Virus record (IMG/VR): IMGVR_UViG_3300045988_002471
Location: 1 to 41,003 of that record
Direction: 5' to 3' (one strand)
DNA length: 41,003 nucleotides
From: a virus
Lineage: Duplodnaviria > Heunggongvirae > Uroviricota > Caudoviricetes
The position numbers and the translations under genes are program-made. The notes below the pieces were generated by a model. It saw nothing but the letters and a program-made list of their open reading frames with translations, ran no database searches and was not told the DNA's origin. Of this stretch, positions 1,204-41,003 are shown one piece after another (within the stretch, counting starts at the first letter, position 1; every line of letters starts with the position of its first letter).

Positions 1204-1677
1204 ATGGAACATATAAAAGATTTTCTAAGCTACGACCGAGAAACCGGGGTATTCACGTGGATACAGCCTACTTACCGTCGAGGGCGACCGGGAGACATCG
1301 CGGGGTGCATCAATAGTAGTGGATACTGGCGAATTCCGTACATGGGTCGATATTACATGGCGCACAGGCTGGCGTGGTTTTTCGAGTATGGTGAATGGCC
1401 CGAAGGTCCTCTTGATCATATAAACCGTGACAGGTTAGACAATAGGATTTCTAACCTAAGGAAAGCAACAACCGCCGATAATGTGCGAAACGCTAAAAAT
1501 AAGGGAGCTAGAACAGGAGTAAAGGGAGTAGTTAAAAACGGCAACCGATTTTACGGGCGTGTGCATTTTAACTACAAAAGTTATAACGCCGGTAGCTACG
1601 GAACTCTTGAAGAAGCAGAAAGCGCTGTAAAGAAATTAAGAGAAAAACTGCACAAGGAATTTTATTGCCATGACTAG
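1204..1677 (+). CDS. HNH homing endonuclease with C-terminal AP2 domain
   Basis: DHINRDRLDNRISNL HNH motif and GVKGV...GRVHFNYKSYNAGSYGTLEEA AP2-like region; start moved to ATG 1204 after RBS GGAG because the track start lies in the terminator. Confidence 0.75.
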   Translation: MEHIKDFLSYDRETGVFTWIQPTYRRGRPGDIAGCINSSGYWRIPYMGRYYMAHRLAWFFEYGEWPEGPLDHINRDRLDNRISNLRKATTADNVRNAKNKGARTGVKGVVKNGNRFYGRVHFNYKSYNAGSYGTLEEAESAVKKLREKLHKEFYCHD

Positions 1678-4063: not shown

Positions 4064-4355
4064 GGGGCGCATCCAGAAATACGCAAAAGAGCGATTCGAG
4101 GCCCTCGGTGGCCTCGTTCGAAAGCTGTCTTATGAGGGGCGCTCAGGCGCCCCCGACCTGCTGGTAATTCTTCCCGGCGGCATCGTCTGGTTCGTCGAGG
4201 TTAAGAAAGACGAAAACACGAAGCCAGACCCGCACCAGATACGTGAGCACGAGCGGATGCGTAAACGCGGTGCAAATGTTTTTGTAGTTGGTTCGCTCAA
4301 ACAGGTTGACGACCTAATAGCAAACTATTATAGTAGTCATACACCAACAATATAA
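4050..4355 (+). CDS. VRR-NUC domain nuclease (PD-(D/E)XK)
   Basis: 101 aa with GAPDLLVI...VWFVEVKK (D...E-V-K) core; RBS GAGGGG upstream. Confidence 0.7.
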   Translation: MSTPEGRIQKYAKERFEALGGLVRKLSYEGRSGAPDLLVILPGGIVWFVEVKKDENTKPDPHQIREHERMRKRGANVFVVGSLKQVDDLIANYYSSHTPTI

Positions 4356-13532: not shown

Positions 13533-15805
13533 TATTTAAACCCCGGCGCATTTCTTGTGGCTTTGCGGGCCTTGCTAATCTTACTGTTGCTGTTCTGCAA
13601 AGATGCAGCAACTTGCTCTTCTATGATGATACGCAGACGGCCTTCATCATCTTGCTCAGTAGATACGTTGCCAATTTGAGAACTCGTGTTGTTTACGATA
13701 GTAACATTAGACGGGCCGGAAGAAGACCCGTTTTGCCCCATAATTTCTTTCATCTGCTGCGCGGTGCGAACACGCGATGCACCCGCGGGCATGATAACTT
13801 CTGGTTTACCGCGTTCAGCGATAGTAGAAGCCTGCCCGGCGGATAACTGCCCACCCTGTTCACGCGCAGACCTGATAGCGGAAACCTGCGCCATACCCGC
13901 CCCAACGGCAGCGGCGGCCGCTACAGGCGCTAAGAACGGGCCGACTACAGGGATAGCCGCCGTTGACTTATACGCCTCAATAGCCGCGGTGTACGTGGCG
14001 ATGGTGGCCTGTACGATAGCGAATGCCTTGTACGCACCAGAAGCCTCCCCCAACGCAGACCCGATGTTTGAGGCCATGTTACCAAAGGCGGTTGCCGTTG
14101 CGTCGGCGCGCTTCGTAGCATACTGCTCGTTGATGGCGTTAAGCGCGGCCTGGTACTGTTTCTCATTAATAAGCCCCTGCTCACGGTACTTATCCGCTAC
14201 CGCCAGTTTCTGCTGTTCCTGGATGTCGAGAAGCTCAAGCTCAGTAGCGTTCTGACCCATAATCTGAGCCATGAAGTCGTCACCTTTCTGCTGCTTTTCC
14301 TGGGCTTCTTTCTGGCGTTTATCCAGTTCATCTTGCCGTTTTTGCCCGGCTTCGAGGACGATAGCTGTTTTAGCCTGTTCGTATTCTTTCAGCGACAGCG
14401 CGCCCTGGCTGTAGAACTCTTTTGCCTTAGCCAGTTTCTGCTGTTCCTGCGCGTCGATAGCCTTTAACTCATCGTTGTTCTGGCGAGCCAAAGTGTCGAG
14501 GTAATCCTGCGCCTGATTCCGCAATTGTTCTGCTTTCTTGGCGGCGGCTTTTGCTGCTTTATCGTCGGTGTTTCCTGCCCCGCCAGTTCCGCCCTTTTTA
14601 TTAACAAGACTGGCTAAGTCAATTTCTTGCTTCTTGCGCTCGTCGTACTGCTTGCGCTGTTCCTCAATTTCTTTCTTACGCTGCTTAGACCTGTTGGTAA
14701 TGGCCTGTGATTCTGCCTCAGCGCGTTTTATGCTAGCGGCGTACGCGGCGTCGGCCTCTGCGGTCAGGTTTTTAAATGTTAGCGCCGCCGTTTTGCTCGG
14801 GTCAAACACGTCGGCAAGGGTCTGCCCTAACGCTACAGCGTAATCGTCGATGCGCTGGAACCACGCAATAACCTCGTGAAATGTCTGCTGGATGTCCGGC
14901 AACCACTCACGGATGGCATCCGGTATAGTCCCCAGCGAGTCAGACATATCAACGGATTTGTCATCGGTATCGAATGCCAGGTCATTCAAGGCGTCGGAAA
15001 TAAACTTGAATGACTCATTGAACAGCGCCACCCAATCCTGGAGCGTGGCGGCTATCTCATTAGACGCGATGGCGTCGGTAAGCGCCGTGATAGCGTCTTC
15101 CGCTGTGGCCGCTTGCTCACCTACGGCGCCGCCAAAACCAGACCGCGCCACCGCAAGAACAAGACCGTCGAAGGAGTCGGCGAGGCTCGATAACTGGCCG
15201 TCTAGCGTCTTAGAGCGCGTCTCCATCGCCCCGGCAAAATCGGTGTTGCCGATATTCAGGAGGTATTTCTGAATCTCTTCGGAGTTCTTCTTAACCGTGG
15301 TCGTTACGCCGCGGAACGTGAACGAAACTGTATCTGCCTGTTGCGACGACTTGATGCCGAACTCTTTTAAGCGCTCAAATTCAAATGTACTGGCGTCGGC
15401 AACTGCCTCAATCATCTGATTAAGGTCTTTACCCATAGCCGCCGCGGTGTTGCCGTAGGAGATTAATGCCTCTTTGCTGGGGTTCAGACCGAGCGCAACG
15501 AGCTTGGTAAACCCCTCTACCGCCTGATTGAGACCGTACGGGGTCTCTTTTGCGAACTGTTGCAGGACGCTGAAAGCCTTAGCCGCGTTCTCGGCGCTCC
15601 CGGTCATCGTGATGAGGCTGGAGTTCAGCTTATCGAAGTTTCGCTGGGAATCCACCAGCGCGCTGAACACCTGCTTAGCGGTTTCCAGACTGACAACGGC
15701 GGCGGCGGCGGCCCCCGCCGCCTTGGTAAGCCCGTTCAGTTGTGATGTGGTTTTATCGACGCCGGTCGATGATACTCGTACTATCAAGCTAGCGGTATCA
15801 GCCAT
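13532..15805 (-). CDS. Tail tape measure protein
   Basis: About 757 aa, Ala/Gln-rich coiled-coil composition; follows chaperone pair; start set to ATG 15805 after RBS GAAGG (track start is TTG). Confidence 0.8.
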   Translation of the reverse strand: MADTASLIVRVSSTGVDKTTSQLNGLTKAAGAAAAAVVSLETAKQVFSALVDSQRNFDKLNSSLITMTGSAENAAKAFSVLQQFAKETPYGLNQAVEGFTKLVALGLNPSKEALISYGNTAAAMGKDLNQMIEAVADASTFEFERLKEFGIKSSQQADTVSFTFRGVTTTVKKNSEEIQKYLLNIGNTDFAGAMETRSKTLDGQLSSLADSFDGLVLAVARSGFGGAVGEQAATAEDAITALTDAIASNEIAATLQDWVALFNESFKFISDALNDLAFDTDDKSVDMSDSLGTIPDAIREWLPDIQQTFHEVIAWFQRIDDYAVALGQTLADVFDPSKTAALTFKNLTAEADAAYAASIKRAEAESQAITNRSKQRKKEIEEQRKQYDERKKQEIDLASLVNKKGGTGGAGNTDDKAAKAAAKKAEQLRNQAQDYLDTLARQNNDELKAIDAQEQQKLAKAKEFYSQGALSLKEYEQAKTAIVLEAGQKRQDELDKRQKEAQEKQQKGDDFMAQIMGQNATELELLDIQEQQKLAVADKYREQGLINEKQYQAALNAINEQYATKRADATATAFGNMASNIGSALGEASGAYKAFAIVQATIATYTAAIEAYKSTAAIPVVGPFLAPVAAAAAVGAGMAQVSAIRSAREQGGQLSAGQASTIAERGKPEVIMPAGASRVRTAQQMKEIMGQNGSSSGPSNVTIVNNTSSQIGNVSTEQDDEGRLRIIIEEQVAASLQNSNSKISKARKATRNAPGFK

Positions 15806-16130
15806 GATTTCTACCTTCAAAGATTGCTTCTAAGCCCATGATAATGTCTATCTCGAACAGGCTAAGCTGTTTTTGCGTAACATCGAGATAGGCTTTCAGG
15901 TCTTGCCACGTAACAGATTCTCTTGCAAACAATACTACAGCGTCCTCGCGCACGTGTCGCGTAAACTTAATGTCGCAATACGTCTCAAAGGTGGATATAA
16001 AAAGGGGCGGGCATTCTGGCCCGCCCCGTCGCGCTGCACGTTTTTTCTTATCGATTACACCCATCGCGATAAGCGCCTGTTCGTGTCCGTCGGCGATAGA
16101 ATCAAACTCTCTGATTTTATGCTTATCCAC
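15798..16130 (-). CDS. Tail assembly chaperone T-like frame, probably expressed as a G-T fusion by -1 frameshift
   Basis: Frame is open from 16181 with no ATG; -1 relative to the upstream gene; GGAAAAG at 16166..16172. Confidence 0.45.
   Translation of the reverse strand: MDKHKIREFDSIADGHEQALIAMGVIDKKKRAARRGGPECPPLFISTFETYCDIKFTRHVREDAVVLFARESVTWQDLKAYLDVTQKQLSLFEIDIIMGLEAIFEGRNHG
16004..16035 (-). terminator. Intragenic terminator-like hairpin (GGGGCGGGC-N6-GCCCGCCCC then TTTTTATAT on minus strand) inside the T-like frame
   Basis: Perfect 9-bp GC stem at 16004..16027 with a U-run on the coding strand. Confidence 0.45.
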
Positions 16131-16687: not shown

Positions 16688-16716
16688 TTGCACACCCCAA
16701 TATAATAGGGTACTAT
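16688..16716 (+). promoter_or_regulatory. Promoter TTGCAC-N17-TACTAT with operator-like palindrome (16703..16720) driving the plus-strand island
   Basis: -35 at 16688..16693, -10 at 16711..16716; the ~38-bp block recurs at 34662..34700 and 35663..35700. Confidence 0.55.
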
Positions 16717-16746
16717 TCACTTACACCAACAATGAAGGGGTTTAAA

Positions 16747-25045: not shown

Positions 25046-25071
25046 GTTTCCCCTTTCTCGATAAGTAAAGC

Positions 25072-25096
25072 CCCGCCTTAAAGCGGGGCGCTAGTC
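25072..25096 (-). terminator. Terminator-like hairpin (GCCCCGC-N6-GCGGGGC + U-rich tail) in the leader just upstream of the spanin RBS
   Basis: 7-bp GC stem then TTTACTTAT on the minus strand. Confidence 0.45.
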
Positions 25097-25168
25097 CTTA
25101 TCATTTAAACATAGAAACGGCGTAATCTCAGTAAACCAGTTACTTTTTACACAAGCAATAGAGTATGG

Positions 25169-25263
25169 CCCTTCCGAACGCGTCAGCGTAACTACACTCA
25201 GGACTTACGTCCCGCTCCGTTACCTGCCCGCGCCGCGGTCGCTTGTTCATACTTCACAAGCTC
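25169..25263 (-). ncRNA. Candidate structured leader RNA / cis-regulatory element, copy A
   Basis: Conserved blocks shared with 35876..35971; two hairpins at matching positions with different sequences; dedicated upstream promoter. Confidence 0.4.
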
Positions 25264-25269
25264 AGGTGG

Positions 25270-25298
25270 AGCTTAGCACATTTTCAGTGAAAAGTCAA
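25270..25298 (-). promoter_or_regulatory. Promoter TTGACT-N14-TGc-TAAGCT (extended -10) for element copy A
   Basis: -35 at 25298..25293, -10 at 25275..25270; same promoter at 35978..36006. Confidence 0.45.
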
Positions 25299-25361
25299 CT
25301 ATTCGAATAGTTTATTCCAACATTTACAATTATGTGGAATAACTGGAATAATCACAGGCGC

Positions 25362-34661: not shown

Positions 34662-34700
34662 AAATGAATAGTAGCCTATTCTATCTTAGTGTGCAAGTAA
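34662..34700 (-). promoter_or_regulatory. Promoter TTGCAC-N17-TACTAT with palindromic operator GAATAGTAGCCTATTC (34666..34681)
   Basis: Perfect 6-bp half-site inverted repeat overlapping the -10. Confidence 0.55.
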
Positions 34701-34877: not shown

Positions 34878-35001
34878 TGTTGCATCTCCTGCAATAGTCG
34901 CTTCGATTGTTGCGTTTGATGAAAGTGTCGCCTTTTGACGACACTAAGTTAAAGTTGTACGCTGCTGTGTAGCAGCGTAAGTCATTAAGCCAAATAGTAA
35001 G

Positions 35002-35163
35002 CTATTGACCTGTTACACCACCTGTTACACCGGCACGATATTGCACACCAGCTTTCCACGCCCGCCACGCAAGACGCGTCTTAACGTTCAGGTACTCTTT
35101 CTTCGAACCCTTGTTAACTGGCAGACCCTCGACGACGGCCCACCGCTCAAATGCTTCTCTCAT
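35002..35163 (-). CDS. Small ORF (53 aa)
   Basis: Own translation MREAFERWAVVEGLPVNKGSKKEYLNVKTRLAWRAWKAGVQYRAGVTGGVTGQ; RBS GGAGGA. Confidence 0.3.
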   Translation of the reverse strand: MREAFERWAVVEGLPVNKGSKKEYLNVKTRLAWRAWKAGVQYRAGVTGGVTGQ

Positions 35164-35415: not shown

Positions 35416-35634
35416 TTATTTAAAGTAGATAGCGAATTTCTTGTAACCCGCGGGCTCATTACGAAGCCCCTTACCGATAGCGAAACGTTGTACGTTGTTA
35501 AAATCGTTTCCATCCATACCGTCGGTGCCGAACGTAAAGAAGTTGCGTTTGTTCCCGATAATTACGCGCTCTGAAATATCGATGCCGTAAACTTGTTTGA
35601 TTGCGGAAACTACGCTTGCGGTCGCTTTGTTCAT
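35416..35634 (-). CDS. Hypothetical protein (72 aa)
   Basis: Track ORF just downstream of promoter 35663..35700. Confidence 0.45.
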   Translation of the reverse strand: MNKATASVVSAIKQVYGIDISERVIIGNKRNFFTFGTDGMDGNDFNNVQRFAIGKGLRNEPAGYKKFAIYFK

Positions 35635-35662
35635 TTCTAAATTCCTTATGTCTCGTTTCGAT

Positions 35663-35700
35663 AAGTGAATAGTAACCTATTATGTTGGGGTGTGCAAGAT
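35663..35700 (-). promoter_or_regulatory. Promoter TTGCAC-N18-TACTAT with operator GAATAGTAACCTATTA (35667..35682)
   Basis: About 38-bp block nearly identical to the reverse complement of 16688..16725. Confidence 0.55.
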
Positions 35701-35875
35701 AATAGTTACGTTGCCGTTGTGATTCTTTCGTTTCTTAAAAGAGTACGCAACGCAGTGGGTGGGCGTTAGCCCACCCCAGCGGAGTGAAGTACTCTCTACC
35801 TTGCTCACGGCAACTATAGAAACTTTTAATTATCAGTGACTTGGATATTTAGGCGGGATTAACAATAGACTTTGA

Positions 35876-35971
35876 CCCTTCCGAAAGCGTCAGCGGAACT
35901 ACACTCAAGTGCCTAATGGCACGCGTTGCGTTCCCTGCCGCTCCGCGGTCGCTTGCGATATCTCACAAGCT
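35876..35971 (-). ncRNA. Candidate structured leader RNA / cis-regulatory element, copy B
   Basis: Shares conserved blocks with 25169..25263; hairpin GTGCC-atta-GGCAC at 35909..35922 replaces GGAC-ttac-GTCC of copy A. Confidence 0.4.
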
Positions 35972-35977
35972 CAGTGA

Positions 35978-36006
35978 AGCTTAGCATATTTTCAAGTAAA
36001 AGTCAA
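35978..36006 (-). promoter_or_regulatory. Promoter TTGACT-N14-TGc-TAAGCT for element copy B
   Basis: -35 at 36006..36001, -10 at 35983..35978; conserved with copy A. Confidence 0.45.
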
Positions 36007-36053
36007 TACCAGTAGCATCTTTTGTATTTTAGTAACTTTGCGTGGTGTTTTGG

Positions 36054-36082
36054 TTGCTTTTACAAAGTTACCGCCTTATACT
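36054..36082 (+). promoter_or_regulatory. Sigma70-like promoter TTGCTT-N17-TATACT for the plus-strand early operon
   Basis: Motifs about 30 nt upstream of the AlpA-like gene RBS. Confidence 0.45.
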
Positions 36083-36111
36083 TCGATACATATTACACAG
36101 GAGAGCGCGAG

Positions 36112-36282
36112 ATGACTATCAATGAAGTTGCAGAATTAATCGGCGTCACCCGCCAGACGATCAATAACTGGATTAAGAGTGGAAAGTTTCCTGATTGCAG
36201 CGTTAAAGTAATGGGGCGCCGTTTACCAGGAACATTTGACCGTAATAAAGTTGAAGCGTGGATTAAGGAGAACGTGAAATGA
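36112..36282 (+). CDS. AlpA-family HTH DNA-binding protein (Xis/AlpA-like)
   Basis: MTINEVAELIGVTRQTINNWIKSGKFPD...; start set to ATG 36112 after RBS CAGGAGAG. Confidence 0.6.
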   Translation: MTINEVAELIGVTRQTINNWIKSGKFPDCSVKVMGRRLPGTFDRNKVEAWIKENVK

Positions 36283-36626: not shown

Positions 36627-38912
36627 ATGTCCGATGTAATTTTATCCTACTCGTGGTCACGCCGCAACGCGCGGGCGGGAAAAAAGGATATAAATGTCAG
36701 AACCGCACACACGGCAACACTGGACGACCTGAAAGAGTTAATCCAGCCGCTCGATGCCGTTCGCGACGGGATTAACCCTAAGACCGCGCCCGGTTATATC
36801 ACCGCCGCGTGCGACTCAACGCACAGCACCGTAAAAGACCCGGAAACTGGAGACTTTAAGCAAGCGCGTAAAGGTTTTTTCTACCGCTGCGATGCGTCTG
36901 TAAGCAAATCGTCGCTGGCCTATCTGGATTTCGACAGCACAACACCGGAAGAGTATCAGGAAGCGGTGCGCCTGGTTAAGCGCAGCCGCTGGGCCATGTG
37001 CCTCTATACCACGGCATCACATACTGATGAGTCACCGCGCTTTCGCGTCGTAATGCCACTGGCCCGTCCGGTGGAGGGTGGTGACATCATCCGTGTTCGT
37101 CATGGGTTGCTGGAGCACTTCTTCAAAGGCATGGGTGCGGACCGCAGCGGGTTCACTCTGTCGCAGCCGATGTACCTGCCGCCGGTTGGCTCTACCGTTA
37201 TCTGGTCGCGCCGTAACGACCTGATTGACCCGGACGAATTACTGGAAGGCGTACCGGATTACGAGGTGAGCAGCGCCTCGGATTACCAGATACCGGAAGA
37301 ACTGCGCACTGCGTTTACTGATGCGTTCGAGGCACTGGCGTTTGAGTACGGTGGCGTCATGACGCCTCGTGGCCTTAAAATGCCCGCTACGCCAGAACAC
37401 GCGGAGAACTACAGCGACCCGACGCCGCGCCCGGACGACTTCCTGCTGTGTTTCCCGCGCGAGGGATATGAAGCGCCTAACGTAACAATGATTCACGACA
37501 CCGACATTACGGCGACCGAAGGCATGTCACCGAAAGAGGTGTGGAAGTACGCGTGCGATGCGACCGGGCTGCCGTTCAGTGAAGTCGCAGAGGCCATCGG
37601 TTGGGGGGCGCGTGAATCTGTCTCATGCAGCCTCGACGACCTGGAAGACGACGAGGACTCAGAGGAGGACGAGTTACCAGAACCGGTAAAGGCTGATTTC
37701 GTCGTTGAGGGGTACATGCCGTCGGATTGTATCTGGGATATTGTCGGGGAATCCGGCACGTACAAATCATTCTATACGCTGGGGATGATGTACCTGAGCG
37801 CCGCCGGGTACCGGTTTGCGGGGGCTGACACCCAACGTTGCCACCATTTCTATATTGACGGCGAGGGTGGTGCAGCTACACGAACACGTATTGATGCACT
37901 CGCGGCTAAATATGGCGAGGAAGGTAAAGATTATGTACATGTCATCGATATGGGCGAAATACTCGCTACGCATGGTGATAAAAAAATTCCAGCTCTAATC
38001 CGCAGGATGCGCGAAACCGCAGGGGATGAACCTATTGGCATGGTTGCCTTCGACACCCTTAACCAGACGCTGGCCCTGACGATTGATAAGTTCGACGAGA
38101 ATAGTTCATCAACAGCAATCGGCATGGGTAAAGTTATCGCCATTCTGAAAGAAGTACGCGATGCAACTAAAGCCGCAGTAGGCGTTGTCCACCATACGCC
38201 GAAGGGTGGAAAGAAAGCACGCGGCAGTGGGGCGCTGTATGCGGGTGTTGACGTGGAACTGACAATCGAACGTGCAACCGACCGTCAGATAAACGTATAT
38301 CACTCGAAATTCAAGCACGGGCCTCAGCAGAAGACGGTTGGCATGGTGCTGGAGTCGGTACAGTTCCGTGAAGCGCCGCCGCCTAAAGAATACCGAGCGG
38401 TTGAGTTCCTGGGTAGCACAGAGGAATACGGCACAATCGTAAACCTGGACCTGCCTGAACCACACAAGGCGCTTGTGTTGATGCCGTGGGGTTTCGAGCC
38501 GTTCAAAACTGACGAGGAGAAAGAGCGGGAAGAAGGGTTGACGAAAGAAGGTAAAGAAAATGTACGTAAAACCGTAGAGAACGCCGTCAACAGTTCGGAG
38601 GCCACGATACTCGCGGCGTTTGAACTGGCGGAAGGAACCTACAACGGCAACGAGGGCATCACGGTATCCGCAGCGAATAAGCTCGCGCAGTCTGACCCCA
38701 ACGCAAAGGCGTTTAACTCCAAAGAAGCCATAGAACGCGGGAAGATTAAGAAAATGGTTGAGGCTGGGTATCTTGTTCCGGGTACTGACGAAAACAATCA
38801 GATAATCACAGGCCGTTACAGGCTGAATACCCGGATAACGGATAACAAGATTCCGAAGACACTATACGAACCGAATGAAATGCTGGTGGTGACCGAGGAT
38901 GATTTGGAATAA
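36627..38912 (+). CDS. Replication protein: primase-like N-terminal region fused to RecA-like ATPase/helicase
   Basis: 761 aa; Walker A GESGTYKS and Walker B-like VAFDTLN in the C-terminal half; N-terminal primase assignment is inferred. Confidence 0.6.
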   Translation: MSDVILSYSWSRRNARAGKKDINVRTAHTATLDDLKELIQPLDAVRDGINPKTAPGYITAACDSTHSTVKDPETGDFKQARKGFFYRCDASVSKSSLAYLDFDSTTPEEYQEAVRLVKRSRWAMCLYTTASHTDESPRFRVVMPLARPVEGGDIIRVRHGLLEHFFKGMGADRSGFTLSQPMYLPPVGSTVIWSRRNDLIDPDELLEGVPDYEVSSASDYQIPEELRTAFTDAFEALAFEYGGVMTPRGLKMPATPEHAENYSDPTPRPDDFLLCFPREGYEAPNVTMIHDTDITATEGMSPKEVWKYACDATGLPFSEVAEAIGWGARESVSCSLDDLEDDEDSEEDELPEPVKADFVVEGYMPSDCIWDIVGESGTYKSFYTLGMMYLSAAGYRFAGADTQRCHHFYIDGEGGAATRTRIDALAAKYGEEGKDYVHVIDMGEILATHGDKKIPALIRRMRETAGDEPIGMVAFDTLNQTLALTIDKFDENSSSTAIGMGKVIAILKEVRDATKAAVGVVHHTPKGGKKARGSGALYAGVDVELTIERATDRQINVYHSKFKHGPQQKTVGMVLESVQFREAPPPKEYRAVEFLGSTEEYGTIVNLDLPEPHKALVLMPWGFEPFKTDEEKEREEGLTKEGKENVRKTVENAVNSSEATILAAFELAEGTYNGNEGITVSAANKLAQSDPNAKAFNSKEAIERGKIKKMVEAGYLVPGTDENNQIITGRYRLNTRITDNKIPKTLYEPNEMLVVTEDDLE

Positions 38913-39209: not shown

Positions 39210-39238
39210 TTGACACGTGAATAGTTCGCTATTATAGT
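39210..39238 (+). promoter_or_regulatory. Promoter TTGACA-N17-TATAGT with embedded operator GAATAGTTCGCTATTA (39219..39234)
   Basis: Consensus -35 and near-consensus -10; operator occupies the spacer. Confidence 0.65.
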
Positions 39239-40104: not shown

Positions 40105-41003
40105 TTCTTAAAGAACGCGGTGGAAATAACGATGTTCACGCATTACTGTCGCCGTCTGGGGCTAAAAAGTGGCTAAGCTGTGCCGCATCACTGGCCTGTG
40201 AGAAAGATATTCCTAACTCGTCCGGCAAAGCTGCCGTATTAGGTACAGCAATGCACACCATAGCAGAGATGCATCTTAACCAGTACATCAAAGGCACTGC
40301 GCTGCCGTTAGAGCGCGAAGTCGGGGCTTACGTGCTGGATGAAGGTAAAGGCCAGATTAAGGCTCTAATCAGCCCGATGAAAGGCGCGGTACTTATTACG
40401 GCGGACATGATTGAACAGGTGCGCAAGTACACCGACTACTGCAAAGCGATTATAGACGTAGCTACTTACGCTAAGCTGGAAATGCGCGTCAATCTTACAC
40501 AGATTCTACACCCCGGGTACAAAGTACCCGTTGAAGGTGAAGAAGGCGAGGAAGATGATTTAGAGACGTTCGGAACGGCTGACCTTGTTGCCGTTCAGGA
40601 ACTGGCTAACACCGACGAGTACATGCTCATTATTGGCGACCTTAAAACGGGTCGGCATCGTGTCGAAGCGAAAGAAAACAAGCAGCTTATGCTTTACGCT
40701 CTCGGTGTTTATCGCAGACTCAAGAGACGTTATAACATCACCGTTGTCCGTCTGGTTATCTTCCAGCCGTACGCGGGCGGTGCGTCGGAGTGGGACATCT
40801 CGGTTGAGGGACTTGAACTGTTCGCTAAGTTCGCACAGAAACGGGCGCTGTTGGCCCTTGATGCCTATTTCCGTGGTAAGAAGAACCTGAAAGCGTCGGA
40901 CTTCAAGCCATCAGCCGATGGTTGCCAGTGGTGCCGGTTCTCTGAACAATGCGCCGCGCGTACAAAGACGGTTAATTCTGTACTGGCGGAAGAACTTGAA
41001 GAC
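40101..41003 (+). CDS. PD-(D/E)XK exonuclease, Cas4-like / DUF2800-like, N-terminal part (continues as 1..436 across the junction)
   Basis: Own translation from ATG 40101 (ATGA overlap with upstream stop): GTADLV...IGDLKTG nuclease motifs, QLMLYALG (QxxxY) motif, N-terminal C..C and C-terminal CQWCRFSEQC cysteine cluster; no stop before window end. Confidence 0.7.
   Translation, partial: MILKERGGNNDVHALLSPSGAKKWLSCAASLACEKDIPNSSGKAAVLGTAMHTIAEMHLNQYIKGTALPLEREVGAYVLDEGKGQIKALISPMKGAVLITADMIEQVRKYTDYCKAIIDVATYAKLEMRVNLTQILHPGYKVPVEGEEGEEDDLETFGTADLVAVQELANTDEYMLIIGDLKTGRHRVEAKENKQLMLYALGVYRRLKRRYNITVVRLVIFQPYAGGASEWDISVEGLELFAKFAQKRALLALDAYFRGKKNLKASDFKPSADGCQWCRFSEQCAARTKTVNSVLAEELED
40949..41003. 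repeat. Second copy of the 55-bp junction duplication
   Basis: Identical to 1..55. Confidence 0.9.

Follow-up and report, generated by a model that had tools for sequence, protein, structure and literature searches.

A promoter-linked two-hairpin RNA element, present in two copies in a Kagunavirus genome, and its possible role as a read-through leader of phage late genes

The stretch of DNA analyzed here, referred to as the window, has a length of 41,003 nt. Its bases 1-55 are repeated exactly at 40949-41003, indicating that it represents a complete, circularly permuted genome of 40,948 bp. The 99% identity to Escherichia phage vB_EcoS-phiEc4 in the region of the second element copy places the window in the genus Kagunavirus of the subfamily Guernseyvirinae, and its source is a virulent, non-lambdoid phage of E. 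coli. The subfamily includes K1-capsule-specific coliphages and the Salmonella Jersey-like phages, both of which are widely used in therapy and biocontrol studies. Two copies of a non-coding element are found on the minus strand. Copy A is located between a Hoc-like head-decoration gene, with its terminator at 25383-25366, and an operon encoding an Rz-like spanin, the scaffold, the major capsid protein and the tail tube. It consists of the following parts:

25154-25298, minus strand: whole element of copy A (promoter, two-hairpin RNA and tail)
25299..25351, minus strand: putative regulator-binding sites upstream of the promoter, comprising the palindrome AACTATTCGAATAGTT and three GGAATAA/TTATTCC repeats
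25270..25298, minus strand: promoter P_A, with -35 TTGACT at 25298..25293 and extended -10 TGcTAAGCT at 25278..25270 (hexamer at 25275..25270)
G25263 or A25262, minus strand: start of the P_A transcript, predicted from the position of the promoter
25156..25261, minus strand: 5' domain, with P1 at 25241-25261, a GA linker, P2 at 25174-25238 and the tail at 25156-25173 (145 bits with the covariance model)
25199-25214, minus strand: apical hairpin CGGGAC-GUAA-GUCCUG at the tip of P2
25070..25155, minus strand: spacer and intrinsic terminator t_A (t_A at 25089..25070)

Copy B lies in the divergent early control region, upstream of the early-left operon, which extends into the holin, endolysin, terminase and portal genes. 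A previous reading of the sequence alone (hereafter the sequence-only reading) had measured the intergenic gap around it as 387 bp. This value holds if the plus-strand neighbor starts at TTG 36022, but an ATG at 36112 with a GGAGAG Shine-Dalgarno sequence is more plausible and brings the gap to 477 bp. Moreover, the neighbor described as AlpA-like proved to be only a 56-aa HTH_17/excisionase-type protein (PF12728) and not a Q-like AlpA antiterminator. The parts of copy B and its surroundings are as follows:

35861-36006, minus strand: whole element of copy B (promoter, two-hairpin RNA and tail)
35978..36006, minus strand: promoter P_B as read from the sequence, with -35 TTGACT at 36006..36001, a 17-nt spacer and extended -10 TGcTAAGCT at 35986..35978
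35983..35978, minus strand: -10 hexamer TAAGCT of P_B, with the TG at 35986..35985
A35971 or G35972, minus strand: start of the P_B transcript, predicted from the position of the promoter
35951..35970, minus strand: P1, an 8-bp hairpin (GCUUGUGA-GAUA-UCGCAAGC) starting at +2/+3, from minimum free energy (MFE) folds
35881..35948, minus strand: P2, a long rod following the GA linker, from MFE folds and covariation
35909-35922, minus strand: apical hairpin GUGCC-AUUA-GGCAC at the tip of P2
35863..35880, minus strand: conserved, single-stranded tail AAGGGUCAAAGUCUAUUG (GGAAGGG ... AGUCUAUUG)
35730..35862, minus strand: spacer and GC hairpin (35757-35777), the latter having no adjacent U tract
35668..35697, minus strand: operator-bearing early-left promoter TTGCAC-17-TACTAT, with -35 at 35697..35692 and -10 at 35674..35669 (repeat family D1)
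35668-35681: palindrome AATAGTAACCTATT within the early-left promoter (repeat family D1)

In both copies a TTGACT-17-TGnTAAGCT promoter is fused to an RNA made of P1, the long rod P2 and the conserved tail. The copies align over ~200 nt with a mean column identity of 82%, and the 32-nt motif TGAGTGTAGTTNCGCTGACGCNTTCGGAAGGG occurs in the window only at 25169-25200 and 35876-35907, where shuffled sequences would be expected to yield 0.00 occurrences. The duplication and the shared minus-strand promoter claimed in the sequence-only reading are thus confirmed, and the promoter, the apical hairpin, the GC hairpin (~35757-35777) and the operator promoter were all found at the coordinates it had given. 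Only the extent of the element needed revision, since the matches to a covariance model span 35861-35979 in copy B and 25154-25270 in copy A, making the RNA element ~15 nt longer on its 3' side than the lower boundary previously drawn. From its base upward, P2 of copy B is composed of CCG/CGG plus GGAGCG/CGCUUU, a CAGGGAAC/GUUCC.CUG helix, a purine-rich internal loop and the apical hairpin.

Homologues were retrieved from annotated phage genomes, IMG/VR and metagenomes, giving ~30 distinct sequences, which can be grouped as a single copy-A type plus four or five copy-B types. The promoter was found in every copy and variant, and the RNA structure begins at +2/+3 of this near-consensus extended -10 promoter. 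All of the ~20 distinct variants that were folded singly adopted P1, GA linker and P2 as their MFE structure, though the sequence of the apical hairpin differs from type to type. This agrees with the earlier claim that the second hairpin changes in sequence while keeping its pairing, as five to six P2 types converge on a single architecture. A covariance model (R1) was built from the homologues. In its alignment of 62 matches (34 distinct), which was fitted to the model and whose variants represent only ~5 lineages, 95.3% of the cells in paired columns hold standard pairs, vs 30-43% when the partners are slid by 1-3 columns. Changes on both sides were observed in seven pairs (60 cells). The basal P2 pair 39-106 is seen as C-G, U-A and A-U; U-A, G-C and A-U all occur in the middle helix of P2; and both sides have changed in four of the six pairs of the apical hairpin. 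Compensatory changes are accordingly present in P2a, P2b and the apical hairpin. The 5' arm of P1 never varies and its 3' arm shows only U-A to U-G changes, so P1 is supported by conservation and folding energy and not by covariation. Covariation of the stems across homologues was therefore borne out for P2 and the apical hairpin (the seven pairs changing on both sides), while the near-invariant P1 shows none.

Two G-U pairs in basal P2 are invariant and additional ones occur elsewhere, and it is owing to such pairs that the minus-sense strand is the more stable. The mean folding energy is -39.5 kcal/mol for the sense and -27.9 kcal/mol for the antisense strand, and the minus sense is better by ~11-11.5 kcal/mol in every variant. 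This strand specificity points to an RNA of minus polarity, not to a DNA cruciform. Along with the compensatory changes, it also upholds the view expressed in the sequence-only reading that RNA structure is under selection. The P1-P2 junction (CAAGC-GA-CCGCGG), the GGCAGG bulge, the internal loop and the tail remain invariant across the diverged copies, and this pattern of sequence conservation suggests contact with a conserved partner, e.g., RNA polymerase or a Nus-type factor. The tail (GGAAGGG ... AGUCUAUUG) is near-invariant across the homologue alignments (A3, A4), with related motifs in the leaders of Cornellvirus phages.

Several other interpretations of the same sequence were considered and rejected. 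A closing helix P0 (CCU/AGG) is not compatible with the predicted start site, which lies 3' of the 5' arm of P0. A pseudoknot joining the loop of P1 (AGUAUG) to the tail (CAUACU) was dismissed, as all four bases occur at the partner position in the tail without any change in the loop, and copy B has no such loop. A small ORF is contradicted by indels of 1, 2 and 4 nt between the copies, and the reading frame from the sole UUG with Shine-Dalgarno spacing is three codons long in copy A and 11 codons long in copy B. A riboswitch using t_A as its expression platform was discarded because no alternative pairing was found (P2 and t_A both persist in the MFE structure) and copy B is without a terminator, and a hammerhead-like CUGA junction because its topology is wrong and Rfam gives no match. 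Hypothetical proteins of 30-40 aa have been annotated over the element (the equivalent of 35926-36015) in PQ435593 (CDS0032), OR594183, PQ384582 and MK931441; given the 1-4-nt indels between variants, they are unlikely to be real genes.

Downstream of copy A, the intrinsic terminator t_A (GCCCCGCU-UUAA-GGCGGGGC followed by UUUACUUAU) has an 8-bp stem and a folding energy of -17.2 kcal/mol, and in some relatives its stem carries a compensatory C-to-T and G-to-A change that keeps the pairing. Only 24 nt separate the end of t_A from the spanin ATG (25045). There is no room for a promoter in this interval, and expression of the capsid operon thus requires read-through of t_A. A further intrinsic terminator follows the capsid gene (22849-22830). 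Conservation extends from ~-75 to the spanin start codon in the 29 distinct copy-A sequences. The non-coding module 25047-25346 is 95-100% identical to that of the Salmonella Jerseyvirus SETP13, vs 48-90% for the neighboring coding sequence, and the stretch of spacer and t_A (25070..25155) shares 98% identity with the same phage. Upstream of P_A, AACTATTCGAATAGTT is a perfect 16-bp palindrome centered near -41.5, and its half-sites are those of the early operators in opposite order. Within the genome the GGAATAA/TTATTCC repeats cluster at P_A only, and they are also found upstream of the late promoters of FSL SP-031 (Cornellvirus), phiEap-2 and TS33. The repeats and the palindrome probably serve to bind a late activator or switch protein. 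Neither is found upstream of P_B.

The unit delimited by P_A and t_A, ~197 nt long and near-invariant throughout, including its A/U-rich spacer, could be taken for an abundant, discrete trans-acting small RNA, comparable to lambda 6S RNA or StxS, that targets host or phage mRNAs or sequesters a host protein, with copy B as its paralogue. A precedent exists, as a functional small RNA is known to arise from early termination at a phage late promoter (PMC7547250). We consider this explanation unlikely. A canonical terminator is missing from copy B and from the Cornellvirus-type leaders, which have only GC hairpins without U tracts, and the U tract of t_A itself (UUUACUUAU) is poor for Hfq binding. 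In a crude duplex screen against the translation-initiation regions of the phage the best value was -39.9 kcal/mol, vs a shuffle mean of -39.4 kcal/mol. Furthermore, with no promoter between t_A and the capsid operon, the same transcript would have to double as an mRNA leader.

The arrangement downstream of copy B is different. The GC hairpin without a U tract (folding energy of the segment -22.6 kcal/mol, tail ACUGCGUUGCG) is followed by the operator-bearing early promoter and then by the early-left operon, so transcripts from P_B would run into the operator-bearing promoter. Intrinsic terminators do occur within the early-left operon, at ~32830-32800 (after the endolysin gene and followed by U8) and at ~31125-31100. 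Since copy B has no canonical terminator and is aimed into the early-left operon, it behaves as a leader and not as a separate gene. On the question of whether the element acts in cis or as a small RNA, the evidence from copy B and from the Cornellvirus relatives, both without a canonical terminator, leans toward a cis-acting leader.

The spacer of copy B has some features of its own. At 35730-35744 (minus strand), 12 nt past the GC hairpin, ACUCUUUUAAGAAAC resembles the rrn boxA (UGCUCUUUAACAA) with one gap, and another subtype of the spacer has CGCUCGCUA in its place. A spacer subtype present in phage Golestan (L009, ~1560-1600, minus strand) and in L004-L007 and L144 contains a (CTCA)n microsatellite of variable repeat number, with ~6.5 repeats in Golestan and ~3.5 in most other phages of that subtype. 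The tract is C-rich and G-poor, like a Rho utilization (rut) site, and lies just before a UUCG-capped hairpin.

As regards other control signals of the genome, the palindrome AATAG-N4-CTATT is present in seven exact copies (451-464, 4316-4329, 16704-16717, 34667-34680, 34993-35006, 35668-35681 and 39220-39233), and 11 matches are found with one mismatch allowed, vs 0.87 expected. At 441, 4306, 16704, 35668 and 39210 the palindrome falls in the interval between, or overlaps, the -35 and -10 elements of sigma-70-like promoters. By its sequence and placement the set looks like an operator regulon of early promoters, for which the 56-aa HTH_17 protein (36112-36282) is a candidate regulator. In addition, a very strong terminator-like hairpin (GGGGCGGGC-CAGAAU-GCCCGCCCC followed by UUUUUAU) is found at 16004-16027 (minus strand) inside ORF 15798..16130, which from its position upstream of the tape-measure gene we take to be the frameshifted part of the tail-assembly-chaperone gene. 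This hairpin may be a terminator or a frameshift stimulator.

The two copies differ in their distribution. Comparison of the homologous sequences indicates that copy A is the widespread, near-invariant form, shared by phages of E. coli and Salmonella, and it is probably the original. Copy B appears from the same comparison to be a lineage-restricted duplicate confined to part of Kagunavirus; it is absent from K1G and SETP13, which carry a different sequence at that position. In K1G (L002) the position of copy B in the early divergent region is occupied at 36775-36802 by an inverted copy of t_A with 96% identity to 25066-25093 of the window, which suggests that control-region modules have been shuffled between sites. 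A metagenomic phage (L041, 2213-2330) carries a copy-B-type P2 within a copy-A-type module upstream of the spanin gene, and the early region on the same IMG/VR contig (L042, 9589-9707) has a different copy-B type. This mosaic leader indicates that P2 variants are interchangeable between the two sites, and at the sequence level it points to recombination or gene conversion, either between copies or between phages. No match was obtained by blastn in 5,426 complete E. coli genomes, and hence no host-derived copy was found. Two looser pattern scans, one of IMG/VR and one of JGI/ENA metagenomes, both filtered with the model, added no sequence type to the five to six already known, which again lay on contigs of phage size (~41-45 kb), and otherwise gave chance matches.

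R1 gave no match in the Cornellvirus FSL SP-031. At the same locus FSL SP-031, phiEap-2, TS33 and Shemara have a differently folded leader of ~230-300 nt with several hairpins, the first at +1 and the last a GC hairpin that is not followed by a U tract. The motif GACCGCG..CGGAAGGG is common to the element and this type of leader, as is AUAGUCUAUU in Shemara. It follows that a structured late-operon leader is common across the subfamily, and that the Kagunavirus/Jerseyvirus branch is characterized by the P1-P2 fold and the canonical t_A.

That all the Guernseyvirinae leaders examined, including the Cornellvirus type, start with a stable +1 hairpin and end with a GC hairpin immediately ahead of the Shine-Dalgarno sequence of the spanin gene is what would be expected of a 5' UTR stabilizer or processing element. 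P1, P2 and the Shine-Dalgarno-like GGAAGGG would then protect the abundant late mRNA from RNase E, RppH or Rho, or direct its processing, leaving elongation unaffected, and the P2 rod would be long enough to serve as an RNase III substrate. A hairpin at +2/+3 is a geometry established to stabilize E. coli mRNAs, and this is precisely where P1 begins; a leader without a terminator, as in copy B, fits as well. However, a stabilizer requires structure and not sequence, yet the junction, bulge, internal loop and tail are invariant, and phages of different genera have almost the same copy A module throughout. Nor does it account for a well-formed, stem-compensated terminator between the copy A leader and the genes. 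On balance we place this explanation on the unlikely side.

The position of copy B might also bear on replication. It lies in a divergent region beside the primase-helicase operon, at the minimum of the cumulative GC skew, and an AT-rich spacer follows both copies. Transcripts that form R-loops or primers are known from the T7, T4 and ColE1 origins, and the structured RNA with its AT-rich stretch might similarly provide an R-loop or primer for a T7-like replisome. This is very improbable, as the GC skew merely follows gene orientation, the universal copy A sits among head genes and ends in a terminator, and K1G and SETP13 do without copy B.

Taking the above into account, we tentatively favor, at rather less than an even chance, a cis-acting leader of late transcription units that promotes terminator read-through. 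The element would constitute the 5' domain of a sigma-70-driven, untranslated leader RNA of Guernseyvirinae, in whose examined records no phage-encoded RNA polymerase was found. Copy A would lead the late spanin-scaffold-capsid-tail operon. Copy B would be a duplicated cassette comprising the promoter, P1, P2, the tail and part of the spacer, placed upstream of the early-left unit, and through this duplication a further group of late-function genes would have come to be controlled in the same way. The RNA would exert its effect in cis, within the transcription unit to which it belongs: both hairpins would fold on emerging from RNA polymerase and, either alone (cf. HK022 put) or with a host or phage factor (cf. 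nut/N), convert it into a termination-resistant elongation complex that then passes t_A and later terminators. The transcription of the element, its cis action and antitermination are all steps that we infer. The read-through leader is favored because the element directly follows a strong promoter, the capsid operon can be expressed only by read-through of t_A, and more terminators lie downstream of both copies. It is further favored because the duplicated unit is a promoter-plus-leader cassette aimed at an operon with distal late-function genes, and because the junctions, loops and tail are invariant in sequence. In addition, a -10-like GAGCTT (nAnnnT) at about +1 to +6 of the transcript could, by analogy with the proposal for putL, cause a sigma-dependent pause.

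Certain observations speak against read-through. A promoter of its own serves the tail operon (16579 leftwards), where the element is not found. The element does not resemble put, neither leader contains a boxA, and none of ten early ORFs was recognized as encoding an antiterminator-like protein. A hairpin at the extreme 5' end fits an mRNA stabilizer equally well, and the near-invariant ~100-nt spacer of copy A is left unexplained by a put-like model. Moreover, as the last hairpin of the Cornellvirus leaders has no U tract, reading through an immediately downstream terminator cannot be a function common to the whole subfamily.

The promoters, the conserved and covarying minus-strand structure, the terminator positions and the phage distribution are directly supported, and a conserved, covarying RNA motif heads the late genes of a well-sampled phage subfamily. 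The copy A module is the most conserved non-coding DNA that we found at the head of the Guernseyvirinae capsid operon, and no Rfam family matched it. No description of late-gene switching in Guernseyvirinae was found in the literature searched, nor any description of the element in the literature on RNA and transcription in Guernseyvirinae, Jerseyvirus and Kagunavirus. If read-through is true, the element would be a new and compact means of reprogramming the host RNA polymerase, and a portable read-through part for synthetic biology may become possible. Even as a mere stabilizer or small RNA, the element marks the late control region and provides a target for engineering or attenuating these phages.

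Comparison with known RNA families and control systems gave only partial likenesses. Rfam 15 returned no match at gathering thresholds over the whole window and none at E<=10 for 35600-36100, and ARAGORN detected no tRNA or tmRNA in the window. With respect to nut-type signals, an ungapped scan of both leaders for the rrn boxA (UGCUCUUUAACAA) with <=3 mismatches was negative, reading both leaders for the lambda-type boxA CGCUCUUA gave nothing either, and a gapped resemblance (ACUCUUUUAAGAA) is confined to 35744..35732, outside the element. Stabilizers such as the ompA 5' UTR share with the element a hairpin that lies no more than 2-3 nt from the 5' terminus of a strongly expressed mRNA; the element differs from them in its extensive sequence invariance and in the terminator between leader and genes. 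StxS is a small RNA generated by early termination at P_R' of Shiga-toxin phages (PMC7547250). Like copy A, it is the short terminated transcript of a phage late promoter with a potential function in trans (PMC7547250), but the two have no homology, and no target or Hfq-type features were identified for the element.

The layout of copy A recalls that of the lambdoid P_R'-6S RNA-t_R' and P. aeruginosa PalpB-tB systems, in which a strong promoter is followed by a non-coding transcript of ~195 nt, an intrinsic terminator and then lysis and head genes, and in which a -10-like sequence opens the transcript (PMC9371919). Accordingly, the locus might be a DNA loading site of the Q/AlpA type, where an element between -35 and -10 and a -10-like pause element at about -1 to +6 load a phage antiterminator and the RNA fold is secondary. 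The arrangement fits both lambda P_R'-t_R' and PalpB-tB (PMC9371919): the promoter is strong, its spacer is conserved in part (TTT.ACT.A.AAAT.TG), TGAGCT/GAGCTT follows directly on the -10 and, in copy A, a terminator lies ~175-195 nt downstream ahead of lysis and head genes. Unlike in these systems, no Q-like or AlpA-like protein was found (no antiterminator PHROG among the ten early ORFs scanned, and a 56-aa HTH_17 protein as the neighbor), selection acts on the RNA structure itself, and copy B lacks a terminator. Since the compensatory changes in P2 and the strand specificity conferred by the G-U pairs would be left unexplained, we regard such a loading site as improbable.

The put RNAs of phage HK022 bind the zinc-binding domain of the RNA polymerase beta' subunit and suppress termination without a protein factor, and rpoC mutations in this domain block them. 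They are two diverged two-stem-loop RNAs, located downstream of P_L and P_R, that render RNA polymerase terminator-resistant (PMC9378689). As with put (PMC9378689), the element occurs as two diverged copies per genome with two stem-loops each, placed near a sigma-70 start at the head of long, terminator-containing operons and with no dedicated protein recognized. By analogy, put would be its closest functional counterpart, but membership in this class fails on both sequence and structure. A covariance model (R2) built from putL and putR recovered its own put sites with 95 and 94 bits and found neither copy at E<=10, and R1 gave no match in HK022. The element measures ~92 nt and combines one short hairpin with one long rod, whereas put measures ~73 nt and adopts a V shape with a triplex; in contrast to put, the element resides in a virulent, non-lambdoid phage and its activity is a prediction only. 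It may even be that the P1-P2 RNA represents a second, unrelated class of RNA that binds the E. coli RNA polymerase and renders it resistant to terminators with no help from a protein factor, which we hold to be rather unlikely. Such a class would be put-like in function, would have evolved within the virulent Guernseyvirinae and would be movable as a promoter-plus-leader cassette.
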